NCBI GenBank assembly: GCA_963717145.1
Contig: OY970325.1
Span: 160,001 to 224,000, forward strand
Length of the DNA: 64,000 nt
Direction of reading: 5' to 3'
Source of the DNA: an uncultured Armatimonadetes bacterium
GTDB taxonomy: Bacteria > Armatimonadota > UBA5829 > DTJY01
The notes beneath the pieces are model-generated. The model saw nothing but the letters and a program-made list of their open reading frames with translations. It had not been told where the DNA came from and did no database searches. Numbering within the stretch: the first letter of the stretch is position 1; each line of letters opens with the position of its first letter. Positions 20,799 through 33,224 of this stretch are shown here, in pieces. The position numbers and the translations under genes are program-made.

Positions 20799-24995
<4,197 letters not shown>

Positions 24996-25055
24996 TAGTG
25001 CTCCGGGTGGGTATGAACGCGGTGTCAGTCCGAATACGCGAAAGGAGAAGAAGCT

Positions 25056-29183: not shown

Positions 29184-29609
29184 ATGCGCAAACTGAGAAT
29201 CATCATCCCGATCATCGTCGCTCTCGCGATCGGTTTCACCGTGGGTGTCACCAGTACCCAGGGTGCGAACGTCCTGAAGGGCGCGGTCATCGCCGTCCTC
29301 GTCGACCAGTTCTCCGGCCAGCTCAACAAGGCGGTCAACAGCCTGACCGCGAACAAGAAGATGCCGTCGAACCTCTCGACCAAGGTTGTTCCGATCCTCT
29401 CGATCGGCTCGGGGGCATACGTCGGCGCGGCGCAGGTCAGCGGCTCGAAGGCCAGCGTGAACCAGGTCAAAGCGGTCGGCCAGTTGGAGACCGGATTCGG
29501 CAAGCAGTTCCGCATCAAGGCGCTCGTGCCGATCAACGTGCGCTCGGTAACGAACATCAAGCGCATCCAGGGCGTGGGTGTCAGCGCGATCATCGACGTG
29601 AAGATTTAG
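29184..29609 (+). CDS. Small secreted hypothetical protein
   Basis: GGAGG RBS; signal peptide; TKVVPILSIGSGAYVGAAQVSG. Confidence 0.8.
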   Translation: MRKLRIIIPIIVALAIGFTVGVTSTQGANVLKGAVIAVLVDQFSGQLNKAVNSLTANKKMPSNLSTKVVPILSIGSGAYVGAAQVSGSKASVNQVKAVGQLETGFGKQFRIKALVPINVRSVTNIKRIQGVGVSAIIDVKI

Positions 29610-29622
29610 CCTCCCGCATGGC

Positions 29623-29687
29623 GCTGTCATTCTGGGCGGAGCGAGTAGTCCCGCAACAGGCTTTTCGCCTCCGCCCGGAATGACAGC
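29623..29687. repeat. TGTCATTC...GAATGACA-type palindromic element between convergent genes
   Basis: GCTGTCATTCTGGGCGGAG ... CTCCGCCCGGAATGACAGC. Confidence 0.7.
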
Positions 29688-29696
29688 CGTGGGCCA

Positions 29697-31643
29697 TCAA
29701 CCATTCCCCAGGCGGATTTCCATCAGGCACTCGGCGCAATCGAAGCGGAGTTCGAGGCGGTGCCCTTCCTCATCGACGAGCGAGAGCGCCCCGGATCGAG
29801 TCCGGGGTTGCGCCCCGTCCTTTGGGCATAGTCCGAGTTGGTGCTTGATGCAGTAGCGCGTCGTCATCACGCGTCGTCCGCGCATGTCGAGCCCTGACTC
29901 GGCTGCGGGTTCGATCTTCGTCACGCCGTGCCGCCGGTAGAACTCCTCGGCCTTGCGATTCAGCACGTTCCCCTCGAAGGTCAGGTCGGTCGCGGGGTAG
30001 GGGACGTCGTTCCGGATCGATCCTCCCTCCAGTCGCGGTCGGTTCTCTTCGCGGACCGTCGAGAGTTCCTCCAAGACTCCGCGCCGCAGCGAGTTCAGCG
30101 CCGAGATCGGTACGAACGGAACCTCCGGCAGATCAATCTCAACCTCCGGGGCCTCGAAGTCAGTGCCCCCCATCTTGGTCAGTTGTCTGCGGATGTTCTC
30201 AAGCGCCTGATCGGGCTTCTGCGCGGTCTCCCTCTCGCACGGGATCGTGAACTCTGCCGCGTTGCCATCCTCATCGACCGCCGTGATTGTCAGGCCGTCG
30301 GGCGACTCGCTCAGCGTCAGGGCGACCCCGATCTTCCTCTCGGGCTGTGACTTCTCCAGGCGCGTAAGGAACTCGTGGTCGTGATTGCGGTAGATCATCG
30401 TGCCCGGCTCGATGCTGACCGGCTTGTCGGTCACAACCGTCCGGCCCTTGACGCCGTTGACGACCGTGCCCCTGAGCCTGCACTGGCGGTCGAACCAGGT
30501 GATTCCATCGCCGTTGTGGAGCGGGATATCCGTGTCGATCATCACGTCTCGGCGGCTGACCCTGATCACCGGCCCGATCGGTTCGCCGATCATCTTGGGG
30601 GTGTCGGGCGAGCCGATCCTGTCGGTCCGCCCGTGGAGGAAGTAGTCGGTGTATCCGCGGTTGAATGTCTTGGCCAGGTCCGGCGTGAAGTCGATCGTGC
30701 TCCGACCGGAGGAAGTACGCTTTGGGGGCGCGCCTTGTGCCGCCTTACCTGCGCTACTCCGTAGGGGCGATCCTTCAACGGTCGCCCGTTGTACAGCGTC
30801 CGGCGGCACAAAGCGCGCCCCTACAACGTGGCGGGCGACCGTTGAAGGATCGCCCCTACGGAGCACTTTGTCTAACTCCTGGCGGTAATATGAGACAACA
30901 TTGGTCACATAGGCCTTGTCCTTCAGCCGGCCCTCGATCTTGAACGAGCAGACGCCCGCATCGATCAGCTCGCCAAGATGCTCGGAGAGGTTGAAGTCGC
31001 GGAGGGAGAGCAGGTGCTTCCGGTACTCCAGGACCTTGTCGCTCCGGTCGATCAGCTTGTAGGGCTTGCGACACGGCTGAGCGCACTGCCCCCGGTTGCC
31101 ACTCCGACCGCCGAGCGCATAGCTGAGGTAGCACTGCCCGCTGTAACAAACGCAGAGCGCTCCGTGGATGAAGCACTCCAGCTCGATGTCGGTGGCGGCC
31201 CGGATCGCGCGGATCTCATCGAGCGTCAACTCCCGCGCCAGGATCGCCCGCTTGATGCCGACTTTGCCAAGGAATGCGACCCGTTCGGGCGTGTTGTTGT
31301 GCATCTGAGTGCTCGCGATGAGGGGGATCGGCGGGAGGTCGCACTCCAGGAGGCCGGCGTCCTGGATGATCAGGCCGTCGATCCCGATGTCGTGGAGCTG
31401 CTCGATCAGCCGTACCGCCTGGGGGATCTCATCGTCGCGCAGGATGGTGTTCACCGTTGCATAGACTTTCGCCCAGAACTTGTGCGCGTGCCTCAGGAGT
31501 TCGGCGATGTCGTCGAGGCTGTTCCCGGCGGATTCGCGCGCGCCGAACCGTGCAGCGCCGATGTACACGGCATCGGCGCCGCAGTCGATCGCCGCTATCC
31601 CGCATTCCAAGTCTTTGGCAGGCGCCAGTAGTTCGATTGTCAT
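29697..31643 (-). CDS. Peptidase U32 family protein, RlhA (YdcP)-like with DUF3656 region
   Basis: ELLAPA, GADAVYIG, ASTQ, ILAREL, HGALCVCYSGQC, NRGQCAQPCR, KIEGRLK, FNRGYT; C-terminal MTTRYCIK. Confidence 0.9.
   Translation of the reverse strand: MTIELLAPAKDLECGIAAIDCGADAVYIGAARFGARESAGNSLDDIAELLRHAHKFWAKVYATVNTILRDDEIPQAVRLIEQLHDIGIDGLIIQDAGLLECDLPPIPLIASTQMHNNTPERVAFLGKVGIKRAILARELTLDEIRAIRAATDIELECFIHGALCVCYSGQCYLSYALGGRSGNRGQCAQPCRKPYKLIDRSDKVLEYRKHLLSLRDFNLSEHLGELIDAGVCSFKIEGRLKDKAYVTNVVSYYRQELDKVLRRGDPSTVARHVVGARFVPPDAVQRATVEGSPLRSSAGKAAQGAPPKRTSSGRSTIDFTPDLAKTFNRGYTDYFLHGRTDRIGSPDTPKMIGEPIGPVIRVSRRDVMIDTDIPLHNGDGITWFDRQCRLRGTVVNGVKGRTVVTDKPVSIEPGTMIYRNHDHEFLTRLEKSQPERKIGVALTLSESPDGLTITAVDEDGNAAEFTIPCERETAQKPDQALENIRRQLTKMGGTDFEAPEVEIDLPEVPFVPISALNSLRRGVLEELSTVREENRPRLEGGSIRNDVPYPATDLTFEGNVLNRKAEEFYRRHGVTKIEPAAESGLDMRGRRVMTTRYCIKHQLGLCPKDGAQPRTRSGALSLVDEEGHRLELRFDCAECLMEIRLGNG
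30724..30859. repeat. Four-unit REP cluster inside the U32 coding region
   Basis: GTAGGGGCGATCCTTCAACGGTCGCCCG (30761) and its inverse (30832-30859); GGCGGCACAAAGCGCGCCCCTAC and a degenerate inverse. Confidence 0.88.
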
Positions 31644-31757
31644 AACATCTCCAGTCGACGGAGGTCGACTTCGTGCCCTCGTTGCCGCGACTTCAGTCGC
31701 CCGGTCAACGCCCATTATACCTCATCCCCAGGTTTTGCGATCACGGGCACTCCGGAC

Positions 31758-33224
31758 GTAACAGTTCACGCTTGGGGATAACGAGTTTGATCAGGCAGGG
31801 AAGAGGACAGACTTGCCTGCGAGCAGTTGCCTGCATGATTCGAGCATGTCCAGACCCCTGACGTGCCATGTGCCAAACAGACTCATGAGCGTCATCTTTG
31901 TCTCGGAACCCTTCGCGCTTCGTGTGCCTCCGCATACCTTGCGGGCGATCACACACGGCCTCAGCGCTCGTTCTGCGCCATTGTTGTCCGACGGTACTTC
32001 CGGGTACTCTACGAACATGAACAACTCGTGCAAGCGATCTATGAATCTCTTTGCCAGCGTCTGCTGTGGAGCATCTGAGCCGACATACGGACCTGAGAGC
32101 GCCTCTACCTCTTCCTCGAAGAGTACTCGCTTCCACTTGCGAACCTCCGCCTTCTTGCTCCGGAACTCCTTTGCCCGATCGTAAACACCCTTCACCGCAT
32201 CCGCCCATGCGATGACGCCCGTGTCGTCCGCGTTCCTCTCCTTCAGTTTGTGCAGATCCCTGGCCAGATGTGCCCAGCATATCTGGCGGTCTGCAACTAC
32301 CGGGTTGTATCCGGCATAGCAATCCGTTACCACTACCCCTTCGTAGTCGCCGCCTATCGTTTCCTTCGGGATCTCTCCACTCCGACTCCGCCGGTAGATG
32401 AAGTATCGCACGTTCTTAGTGGAGAAGGTCCAGATGTATCCGTTCAGCCCATCCTCTCTCCAGCCCGTCTCGTCTGCGTTTATGTATGGGCTTCCACGTA
32501 CAAGCGAGAGTAGCCGCTCTTTCTCTTTTTTGCCACAGTCTGCCACCGTGTGCAATATCTCGCTTATCTCTCCCACAGAGAGCTGAAGACCATACAGAGC
32601 CTTCAGCAATCCCTGTATCGTCCGCTTTGTCATGCGACCTACCGTCGAAAGATACGATATCAGGCTCATCAGGTTCACGCCTACCCGATGCTTGCCTACA
32701 ACCTGGCCGGAAAGGTCAACCTTCGGCACATGACTCTTGCCACAGTATCCGCATCTTCTGGCGATGAACCTGTGCTCGACTACGTCCACAGGCACGATGG
32801 GGATGTCGATGACTTGGCGGAGTCTCTTTACCGTGCCCCCTGTGAGCGCTCGGCCGCAGTCCGGACACTTCGAGTGCGCGTGCTCGACTACACGGGTGGG
32901 TGTCTCCCGCCTGCGCACGAACGACTTCTTGCGCTTCTTTCGTTCAGCTGCCCGGCGCTCTTTGCGGTTCGGCTTCACCCAGTCAGGCACGGATGGGGAA
33001 CTGCCATCACCGCCGGAAAGCCTGGCGCGAAGGTCTTCGTTCTCCTTCTCCAGGTCGCCGATACGCGCCACGAGTTGGGGAACTAGACCTTCCAACTGGC
33101 TGACCCTGGCCTCAAGCTCCTCGTATGTCGGCTTGGATTGCTCGCTCACACTCCTTGGTTCGAGACGCTCCCAGCAGGTTCCTTCTTCTTACAGACAAAA
33201 TAATCCCTAAGCCTGAACTGTTAC
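31758..33224 (-). mobile_element. IS66-family single-ORF element, copy A
   Basis: IRs GTAACAGTTCA.GCTT; left TSD CTCCGGAC at 31750-31757. Confidence 0.92.
31791..33149 (-). CDS. IS66-family transposase
   Basis: CPDCG, NADETGW, VTDCYAGY, CWAH, DNNGAERALR. Confidence 0.92.
   Translation of the reverse strand: MSEQSKPTYEELEARVSQLEGLVPQLVARIGDLEKENEDLRARLSGGDGSSPSVPDWVKPNRKERRAAERKKRKKSFVRRRETPTRVVEHAHSKCPDCGRALTGGTVKRLRQVIDIPIVPVDVVEHRFIARRCGYCGKSHVPKVDLSGQVVGKHRVGVNLMSLISYLSTVGRMTKRTIQGLLKALYGLQLSVGEISEILHTVADCGKKEKERLLSLVRGSPYINADETGWREDGLNGYIWTFSTKNVRYFIYRRSRSGEIPKETIGGDYEGVVVTDCYAGYNPVVADRQICWAHLARDLHKLKERNADDTGVIAWADAVKGVYDRAKEFRSKKAEVRKWKRVLFEEEVEALSGPYVGSDAPQQTLAKRFIDRLHELFMFVEYPEVPSDNNGAERALRPCVIARKVCGGTRSAKGSETKMTLMSLFGTWHVRGLDMLESCRQLLAGKSVLFPA

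Follow-up and report, generated by a model that had tools for sequence, protein, structure and literature searches.

Intragenic GTAG-tagged REPs that are translated inside the ORFs of known proteins have been described, and clusters of them encode 43–82 residues in Thauera and R. conorii (Di Nocera, De Gregorio & Rocco 2013, PMC3733652, in the available parts of the paper). The same parts carry the authors' suggestion that intragenic REPs are neutral because they lie in linkers or loops that are flexible, and Opitutus terrae (O. terrae) has about 70 mentions in Additional file 3 (PMC3733652). The Rickettsia RPEs are palindromes that, according to the accessible text of two papers, lie in frame in many unrelated and apparently functional genes (PMC3733652, PMC10969869). 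In the same text, RPE-1 appears as an element of about 150 bp that has a conserved peptide of its own and belongs to an obligate intracellular alphaproteobacterium (PMC3733652, PMC10969869). A literature search returned no paper with both "Armatimonadota" and "repetitive extragenic palindromic". The REP/REPIN-RAYT systems of E. coli and Pseudomonas were reportedly described by Bertels and Rainey in 2011. They are said to comprise inverted REP doublets with a GTAG head and Y1 genes flanked by their presumed cargo REPs.

The window analysed here is the whole stretch of 64,000 nucleotides from an uncultured Armatimonadota bacterium, and the locus under study is an in-frame insert of REP units in an rlhA-like gene. 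The E. coli and Pseudomonas REPs are described as extragenic, whereas 15% of the REP clusters of this genome (42 of 281, assigned to ORFs by a codon-score heuristic, not by a gene caller) lie in frame in ORFs; the inverted doublets, the GTAG head and the REP-flanked Y1 genes are common to both. The likeness to the REPs of PMC3733652, as far as its available parts go, consists of the GTAG head, a short GC-rich hairpin, and the occurrence as inverted dimers and clusters. The scale given there for O. terrae is similar to that of the 42 clusters. In contrast to what these parts describe, the host is a member of the Armatimonadota, the target is rlhA and the units form an interleaved mosaic of two families, not a simple dimer. 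With the Rickettsia RPEs, within the accessible text of PMC3733652 and PMC10969869, the locus shares the in-frame position of palindromes in many unrelated, apparently functional genes, and the rlhA insert likewise sits at a position compatible with the protein fold. Unlike RPE-1, the present case has GTAG REP units of 25–28 nt, RAYT-type genes and a free-living host with a genome of 5.4 Mb. Unit size and GTAG head point to a place of the insert units in the REP super-family, with the RPEs as a probable functional analogue. Intragenic in-frame REPs are already known, and the rlhA insert is a fresh example of them, with no new element or mechanism.

The rlhA-like gene

The gene that carries the insert was taken from the ORF list.

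29697..31715, minus strand: rlhA-like U32 gene, 672 aa from the first ATG

Comparison with the ortholog starts pointed to the ATG at 31643 as the likely true start and so to a protein of 648 aa (MTIELLAPAKD...). Pfam matches were obtained with Peptidase_U32 (PF01136, 4.1e-74) and C-terminally with DUF3656 (PF12392, 1.9e-23); this architecture of about 650 aa is that of the RlhA family. No RlhA model surfaced in the NCBIfam search. Therefore, the protein was compared directly with E. coli RlhA (YdcP), annotated in NC_000913.3 as the 23S rRNA 5-hydroxycytidine C2501 synthase. The identity was 41% over the full length (3–643 against 8–618, E 6e-160), and the sole large gap, a single one of 41 residues, falls at the insert position. 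E. coli RlhA has the same architecture but lacks the segment of 47 residues, and the activity of the rlhA-like protein is predicted. The preliminary description had called the gene U32/RlhA-like and proposed alignment to RlhA/YdcP orthologs as the way to delimit the insert; the identity held, and the alignment did delimit it. An identity as TrhP, UbiU or UbiV was dropped, since the NCBIfam scores were far under the cut-offs (160 against 534, 135 against 440 and 31 against 275, respectively). A PDB sequence search with the protein gave 0 matches. Foldseek with the predicted model found the U32 peptidase Mk0906 (5d88, E 1e-6) and then generic TIM barrels; for the model, these matches confirm the fold class only.

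Four cysteines, C164, C171, C187 and C191 in the 648-aa numbering, are invariant in an alignment of 37 sequences that includes the rlhA-like protein. From work on UbiU and UbiV, we take the conserved cysteines of the U32 core to be ligands of an Fe-S cluster. The protein keeps the residue at every invariant column of the alignment, with 0 private deviations at otherwise invariant columns, in agreement with the earlier claim that all conserved motifs are intact. The dN/dS against the nearest ortholog (G006, 601 codons) is 0.14, so the relaxation that had been named as an argument against a functional gene was not found; the perfect arms of the B repeat described below would make the insertion recent, and therefore the intact residues and the low pairwise dN/dS would mostly predate it. 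Taken as a comparison of sequences, these results support an open and conserved gene for an RlhA-type enzyme, with C2501 hydroxylation as its predicted activity.

Directly upstream of the rlhA-like gene, on the same strand, there is an ORF for an IS66 transposase. A promoter scan of 29500–31900 gave 0 sigma-70-like sites, and the one terminator-like site in the same interval was not above shuffles. Transcription of the gene is therefore not assured, given the IS66 ORF and the outcome of the promoter scan.

The insert and its REP units

The limits of the insert were set with the ortholog alignments, and its units were found with a consensus scan.

30720..30860, minus strand: in-frame insert in the rlhA-like gene, 141 nt, 47 codons
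30832..30859, minus strand: REP family B unit, 0 mismatches, GTAG head, first in the coding direction
30800..30824, minus strand: REP family A unit, 3 mismatches, GTAG head present
30761..30788, plus strand: REP family B unit, 0 mismatches, inverted partner of the first B unit
30722..30746, plus strand: REP family A unit, degenerate, 5 mismatches, head TTTG in place of GTAG, inverted partner of the A unit at 30800..30824
30757..30863, strand-neutral: hairpin region of the B inverted repeat, predicted mRNA hairpin of 34 bp

The preliminary description had placed the insert at 30724–30859 with about 46 aa. The location was right to within 4 nt, and the extent is corrected here to 30720–30860 and 47 residues. 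Its peptide, RRGDPS...GAPPK, was recovered unchanged between YYRQELDKVL and RTSSGRS, and corresponds to residues 286–332 of the 672-aa ORF and 262–308 of the 648-aa protein. The insert is also, as had been stated, in frame and stop-free inside the open gene, and it consists of four REP units, two A and two B, which are the two types of the insert in the neighbouring GH2 gene. The ten-residue peptide that was said to be common to both proteins is identical, with three occurrences in the insert of the GH2 ORF. The GH2 gene falls into two overlapping ORFs, possibly through a frame error; therefore, the judgement that rlhA is the stronger and cleaner case stands.

The units are interleaved in the order B A B' A', so that two families are mixed, and three of the four have the GTAG head, the exception being the A unit with TTTG. 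The B pair forms a perfect inverted repeat of 32 nt (30757–30788 and 30832–30863) with 43 nt between the arms. The A pair forms one of 28 nt that is 86% complementary. RNA folding of the insert hairpin gave –104.1 kcal/mol with a z of –9.8, and 0 of 200 shuffles were as stable. Within the B unit, a stem-loop can be read from the sequence as GGGCGATC / CTTCAAC / GGTCGCCC, with 8 pairs including one G-U and a loop of 7 nt; for family A, the stem is harder to make out than for family B. In the window, there were 5 matches to the B pattern, and 100 shuffles gave 0; for the A pattern, there were 4 matches, with a mean of 0.02 in the shuffles. Chance does not explain these matches. No further copy of the composite block of four units was found in the genome, where only single units of 32–37 nt match it.

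REP families of the genome

The family consensus sequences all start with GTAGGGGCG. A 9-nt head alone was dropped as the definition of a REP, with 427 exact matches against 173 for the reversed control, and the family consensus sequences of 19–28 nt were used. When up to 5 mismatches were allowed in A, B, C and E and up to 2 in the 19-nt family D, the counts for A, B, C, E and D were 168, 136, 126, 98 and 148, and those of the reversed controls 0, 0, 0, 0 and 1. REP-B was also counted at 111 copies genome-wide, with 0 for its reversed-pattern control. Families C and E have the same loop as B and different stems that still pair. A total of 572 REP units was found in the 281 clusters. Two units make up 159 of these clusters, and the two-unit clusters examined, such as the A and B pairs of the rlhA insert, are inverted.

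Six ORFs of the genome score above the Pfam cut-off for Y1_Tnp (PF01797), three of which are accompanied by REP units (family A, C/E or D) at a distance of 18–182 nt.

G000 827258: RAYT-type Y1 transposase gene, A units 87–182 nt away on both sides
G000 242007: RAYT-type Y1 transposase gene, E/C units 78–122 nt away on both sides
G000 4205435: RAYT-type Y1 transposase gene, D units 18–532 nt away

No Y1_Tnp ORF flanked specifically by family B units was found. The features of a GTAG-tagged REP/REPIN system are present, namely the GTAG head, a short GC-rich stem-loop, dispersed inverted copies and a Y1 gene flanked by REPs, and families A and B may be mobilised by RAYT. REP-A, with 163 copies in the source genome, occurs once in G006 and is missing from the nine remaining genomes of the family; REP-B was found once in G001 and not at all in G006, G009, G008 and G002.

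Comparison with orthologs and other in-frame clusters

The insert is missing from 16 of 17 orthologs in related genomes, from 37 of 38 wider orthologs and from 35 of 36 orthologs on metagenome contigs. The spacing between KIEGR and TFNR is 40–49 residues in 37 of the 38 wider orthologs, a set drawn from many phyla, and 43–47 in 35 of the 36 metagenome orthologs. On two metagenome contigs from relatives about 90% identical, the site is joined with 12 and 30 nt, which replace 147 and 165 nt, respectively. The exception is one sister genus, in which an unrelated palindromic repeat occupies the same rlhA linker; the metagenome contig L143 reproduces this analogous insert letter for letter at the protein level. 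The comparisons support a lineage-specific REP insertion, not an ancestral segment of the protein. That the segment is ancestral, the other outcome named as speaking against the preliminary reading, and that it was lost from the other orthologs can be taken as already refuted by the orthologs and by E. coli RlhA, for the extra residues in the same linker of one other genus belong to an unrelated repeat, the KIEGR–TFNR spacing is short nearly everywhere, and the insert is composed of repeat units present elsewhere in the genome.

The 42 in-frame clusters are spread over 40 ORFs, and 35 of the 39 ORFs besides rlhA have Pfam matches. Among the hosts are single-copy housekeeping genes such as metG, a class-I Glu/Gln-tRNA synthetase gene, nadE and cysNC. 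For metG, an mtnA-like gene, the Glu/Gln-tRNA synthetase gene and cysNC, the insert is missing in every relative with an ortholog, and for a LarA-like gene the relatives have distant paralogs only. Units inside ORFs have on average 1.88 mismatches (n = 90) against 1.75 for the others (n = 384).

Discussion

The overall result is best explained by the insertion of REP units in frame into the linker of an RlhA-type U32 gene, where they are tolerated and translated as a loop; we put the probability of this reading at roughly 0.8. Four GTAG-headed REP units, as mobile hairpins spread by RAYTs, would have entered the linker-coding DNA of rlhA, probably in at least two events. Perfect B units next to degenerate A units, and a composite with no second genomic copy, argue for more than one event; we infer the order of the events as old A and fresh B units. 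The added length is divisible by three and leaves the reading frame of rlhA open. No stop falls in the frame through the units, since the GTAG heads come out in it as xGT-AGG. The units would then be translated as a loop of 47 residues rich in Pro, Gly, Arg and Ala. The survival of the insert may be due to the unconstrained, length-variable linker that was hit, and insertions out of frame or at other sites would have been purged by selection.

The structure prediction is consistent with tolerance. AlphaFold2 gave a mean pLDDT of 88.9 and a pTM of 0.89 for the protein, and the only long segment with a pLDDT below 50, residues 266–303, is the insert. The site is a length-variable linker between two domains, behind the final helix of the U32 catalytic domain. 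Therefore, the insert is predicted to be a disordered loop projecting from an otherwise normally folded protein, and we infer from the sequence that the RlhA-like enzyme still works.

It is unlikely, although less so than the other alternatives, that a recent insertion inactivated or silenced rlhA and left a pseudogene in the making whose decay is not yet visible. The B arms are complementary at 32 of 32 positions with 0 consensus mismatches, which would fit a young event, the predicted mRNA hairpin is very strong and the IS66 ORF lies just upstream. RlhA is dispensable in E. coli, which was counted in the same direction. The predicted perfect 34-bp mRNA duplex could invite cutting by RNase III or slow the ribosomes. 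However, the frame is open although the A units are degenerate, and the insert sits precisely in the sole length-variable linker with the fold predicted to be untouched. Inserts of a similar kind are also present in indispensable genes, among them metG, nadE and the tRNA synthetase gene.

Co-option of the insert, either as an RNA hairpin that tunes mRNA stability or imposes a translation pause between the domains or as a new binding loop, seems quite improbable. The hairpin is far more stable than the shuffles, the interdomain position would fit a folding pause, and the sister genus too has a palindrome in the same linker. On the other hand, the peptide is a mere translation of a repeat with hundreds of copies, mostly outside ORFs, the units in ORFs are conserved neither better nor worse than the others, and nearly all orthologs do without the insert.

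It is very hard to credit that the segment is an artefact of the assembly or consensus in which repeat reads were misplaced inside rlhA. REP copies from elsewhere draw metagenome contigs to 30742–30877, none of the contigs spans the junctions between flank and REP, and the neighbouring GH2 gene may hold a frame error; yet the insert is exactly 47 stop-free codons in a linker, 41 further clusters behave alike, and the sister genus's analogous insert turns up again on the independent contig L143. The six metagenome runs examined contain only relatives of the source organism, and none of their contigs crosses the entire stretch.

On the preferred reading of a tolerated and translated insertion, the rlhA insert would be a clean comparative case of 141 nt of selfish hairpin DNA carried in a conserved enzyme gene with the frame open. 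Together with about 40 sister cases, it suggests that an Armatimonadota genome tolerates in-frame REPs at the scale of Opitutus terrae and Rickettsia. Such a natural set of loop insertions can be used to ask which protein sites accept extra sequence, how a perfect 34-bp duplex inside an ORF affects translation and mRNA decay, and if occupied sites draw further repeats. For the last question, we tentatively consider "palindrome nests", a possible but doubtful extension, in which an occupied linker site stays a landing pad and is inherited while palindromes of the same or of unrelated families are added, replaced and lost over long periods. This would explain how rlhA came to combine old A units with fresh B units. 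It would also explain the sister genus, where an unrelated palindrome family lies in the same linker of both rlhA and nadE (2 of the 6 sites examined), and the near-consensus REP units that were found in the same loop of five divergent paralogs with 50–58% identity in protein sequence.

Results

The rlhA-like gene is a single open frame of 672 codons on the minus strand (window 29697–31715). The starts of its orthologs correspond to the Met at residue 25 (MTIELLAPAKD), so the protein probably starts at 31643 and has 648 residues. Pfam placed Peptidase_U32 at residues 98–288 (4e-74) and DUF3656 at 441–555 (2e-23), and NCBIfam gave only sub-threshold matches, to TrhP, UbiU and UbiV. The identity to E. 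coli K-12 rlhA, annotated as the 23S rRNA 5-hydroxycytidine C2501 synthase, is 41% end to end (E 6e-160), and the one large gap of that alignment (41 residues) falls exactly at the insert. Because of this end-to-end identity, the product is assigned, by sequence comparison, as an RlhA-type U32 protein.

The preliminary description had placed four REP units of two types in frame between YYRQELDKVL and RTSSGRS. The same 47 residues were found between these flanks, coded by 30720–30860 (141 nt), and pattern matching recovered two units each of the GTAG-headed families A and B.

REP units of the insert (window positions)
30722–30746, plus strand, REP A unit, 5 mismatches, degenerate head
30761–30788, plus strand, REP B unit, identical to the family consensus
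30800–30824, minus strand, REP A unit, 3 mismatches
30832–30859, minus strand, REP B unit, identical to the family consensus

The B pair lies within a perfect 32-nt inverted repeat, and the A pair shows 86% complementarity across 28 nt. The order along the coding direction is B, A, B', A', that is, interleaved and not nested. The window holds 5 matches to the B pattern and 4 to the A pattern, against 0 and 0.02 expected from window shuffles. The remaining A and B matches are in the GH2 ORF (23613–23694 and 23994–24135), where the 10-residue peptide described as common to both genes is coded three times.

It had been considered beforehand that the segment might be ancestral, and this was refuted by ortholog alignment. 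Across 41 genomes (the source genome, G000, and 40 relatives), a full-length ortholog was present in 17 relatives, two loci with only 400–420-aa paralogs being dropped; 16 of the 17 relatives' orthologs align as two adjacent pieces, skipping query residues ~285–331. Of 43 loci from a species-representative genome collection, 38 had the two flanking motifs within a single ORF; in 37 of these the KIEGR–TFNR spacing was 40–49 residues, versus ~88 in the G000 gene. The motifs were found in 36 of 43 metagenome loci, with a spacing of 43–47 residues in 35. The three ortholog sets agree, and the insert is, as far as these alignments indicate, lineage-specific. Furthermore, two Logan contigs (runs X1 and X5, two studies) from relatives ~90% identical in DNA bridge the insert site, where 12 and 30 other letters replace 147 and 165 nt.

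The sole exception in every set is one sequence type, found in G001 (L002, same record region as L061), a genome of another genus in the same family, and in a metagenome contig (L143). The rlhA ortholog of G001 carries a 38–42-residue insert in the same linker, built of an unrelated repeat; the hairpin CCCTCCCCGCCACGGGGAGGG forms part of a perfect 33-nt inverted repeat there.

In-frame palindrome of the G001 rlhA ortholog
L002:2290–2529; the identical insert peptide occurs in L143, an independent metagenome contig

Copies of this hairpin family number 43 in G001 and, as a variant, 47 in G000; none were found in G006, G009 and G008. The two inserts share their end point, with the conserved Arg of R-x-S-S-G as the next residue, but start at different linker residues. 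The dS values of the gene are 0.67 for G000–G006, 0.71 for G000–G001 and 0.57 for G001–G006. The three genes are thus about equidistant, and therefore the rlhA gene itself is silent on whether the site was occupied in the common ancestor. Five further REP-bearing genes of G000 were compared at the insert site in five relatives. At nadE, the hairpin family of the G001 rlhA insert recurs in G001, placed in the inter-domain linker that carries a family A REP pair in G000. The G001 site is empty in metG, an mtnA-like gene, the class-I Glu/Gln-tRNA synthetase and cysNC, and G006 is empty at all six sites including rlhA.

The source genome is a single contig of 5.37 Mb with 60.6% G+C, on which the window corresponds to G000:C1:160001–224000. 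Its five REP families, A to E, all open with GTAGGGGCG followed by a GC-rich stem-loop; B, C and E have the common loop CTTCNAC and different stems in which pairing is kept. Counting with 19–28-nt consensus patterns gave 168 (A), 136 (B), 126 (C), 98 (D) and 148 (E) raw matches, versus 0, 0, 0, 0 and 1 for the reversed patterns. After removal of overlaps, 572 units remained in 281 clusters, 159 of which consist of two units. Pfam Y1_Tnp gave 7 matches in G000, 6 above the cut-off, and REP units lie near three of these ORFs.

Y1_Tnp ORFs of G000 with nearby REP units
827258, family A units on both sides (87–182 nt)
242007, E/C units on both sides (78–122 nt)
4205435, D units adjoining

On sequence grounds, the repeats and the nearby Y1_Tnp ORFs show what defines a GTAG-tagged REP/REPIN system with its RAYT transposases; no RAYT flanked specifically by B units was found among the Y1_Tnp matches. 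Family A is present in 163 copies in G000, once in G006 and not at all in nine other same-family genomes; family B was counted once in G001 and was missing from G006, G009, G008 and G002. Among these relatives, mostly fragmented assemblies, both families thus appear nearly confined to G000.

REP clusters within coding sequence were called across G000 with a score of codon log-odds, for which 722 long ORFs served as the training set, a heuristic and not a gene annotation. A cluster was accepted if its frame was open and the sequence on either side looked coding, in that frame, for 150 nt or more. By this heuristic, 42 of 281 REP clusters are in frame within ORFs versus 904 of 2000 random segments of equal lengths; therefore, REPs are depleted in coding DNA, yet far from excluded. 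The 42 clusters are spread over 40 ORFs. A Pfam family at E ≤1e-5 is present in 35 of the 39 ORFs other than rlhA and absent from 4; REP-bearing ORFs include metG, Glu/Gln-tRNA synthetase, nadE, cysNC, glycyl-radical enzymes, GH2, GH38, GH57 and a B-family DNA polymerase. Units in ORFs number 47/168 (28%) for family A, 30/148 for E, 10/111 for B, 3/47 for C and, in the whole genome by the same heuristic, 0/98 for D (GTAGGGGCGAAGCATTGGC...). In-ORF units are as close to the consensus as the rest (mean mismatches 1.88 versus 1.75). A second palindrome family of G000 (CCCTCCCCGCAACGGAGAGGG type) is in frame in ORFs in 10 of 26 clusters. The metG gene (L084, G000:C1:1778115–1780400) has two different in-frame palindromic inserts, both missing from the five relatives checked.

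Inserts of metG
aa 403–444, three-unit GTAG REP cluster
~aa 585–626, pair of the second hairpin family

Five PMT_2 (plus TPR) membrane protein paralogs of G000, 50–58% identical, carry near-consensus family E/C units in the same loop with differing unit numbers. One G001 paralog has the REP-like GRPLKVSPA at the same position (the ORF filter was passed by 8 of 14 relatives' loci).

PMT_2 paralogs with REP units (G000:C1)
3281861–3283825
4377838–4379133
4494472–4496496
5309870–5311255
5311298–5313574

Discussion

The in-frame insert of the rlhA-like gene is exactly what Di Nocera, De Gregorio and Rocco (2013; PMC3733652) describe: in several species, they report GTAG and CGTC REPs that lie within the coding sequence of known proteins. 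In their account, REP clusters code for 43–82 residues, neutrality of the inserts is suggested through their placement in linkers or loops, and the GTAG cases are most numerous in Opitutus terrae (70 mentions in the table of Additional file 3). A Rickettsia precedent, RPE, is summarised in a 2024 review (PMC10969869). Our literature search returned no paper joining 'Armatimonadota' with 'repetitive extragenic palindromic'. The rlhA insert is therefore well supported as a new example of a known phenomenon.

The best-supported explanation has four parts. RAYT-type transposases would have moved REP units into linker-coding DNA. At least two insertion events would be needed, given degenerate A units next to perfect B units and a four-unit composite that occurs only once in the G000 genome. 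The length of 47 codons and a frame avoiding the TAG of the GTAG head keep the ORF open. The product would gain a disordered loop where length naturally varies, and insertions at other places would be purged by selection. In the AlphaFold2 model (37-sequence alignment, mean pLDDT 88.9, pTM 0.89), the sole long segment with pLDDT <50 is residues 266–303 of the 648-aa protein, inside the insert (262–308) and directly after helix 243–263, which closes the U32 domain. The top structural match of the predicted fold is the U32 peptidase Mk0906.

A young inactivating insertion is a rival explanation. The pairwise dN/dS against G006 is 0.14 (601 codons) and reflects mostly pre-insertion time. The conserved motifs, described earlier as intact, are so: all columns invariant across 37 sequences are kept, including four cysteines, and where all the other sequences agree the protein has 0 private deviations, compared with 0–3 in other sequences. 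In another rival, the hairpin or the loop would have been exapted. The insert as RNA is predicted to form a perfect 34-bp stem (–104.1 kcal/mol, z –9.8). An assembly artefact is a third rival, regarded as very unlikely; the other in-frame clusters of the genome speak against it. The fourth, an ancestral segment, is refuted.

Beyond the RAYT-driven explanation, the most unusual feature is that palindromes recur at the same sites, in rlhA and nadE of two genera and in the loop of the PMT_2 paralogs. From these same-site cases, occupied sites could be supposed to attract and exchange repeats, although we regard this as rather unlikely. Di Nocera et al. (PMC3733652) also mention recB, in which two Xanthomonas species have different REPs at about the same position.

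Some minor observations concern the neighbourhood. Immediately upstream, the rlhA-like gene is preceded on its own strand by an IS66-family transposase ORF (DDE_Tnp_IS66, 3.8e-37; window 31791–33149, minus strand), which may have displaced the promoter of the gene; no sigma-70-like site was found in window 29500–31900. The GH2 beta-galactosidase gene, which carries the sister inserts, consists of two overlapping ORFs (window 21715–22842 and 22803–24998, plus strand), with the N-terminal domains in one and the TIM barrel and C-terminal domains in the other, suggesting either a frameshift or an error of assembly. With the rlhA-like query, no second U32 paralog of ~400–450 aa was seen in G000, where the other matches were to the REP peptide only; several relatives have such a paralog, with 37–42% identity to the query.
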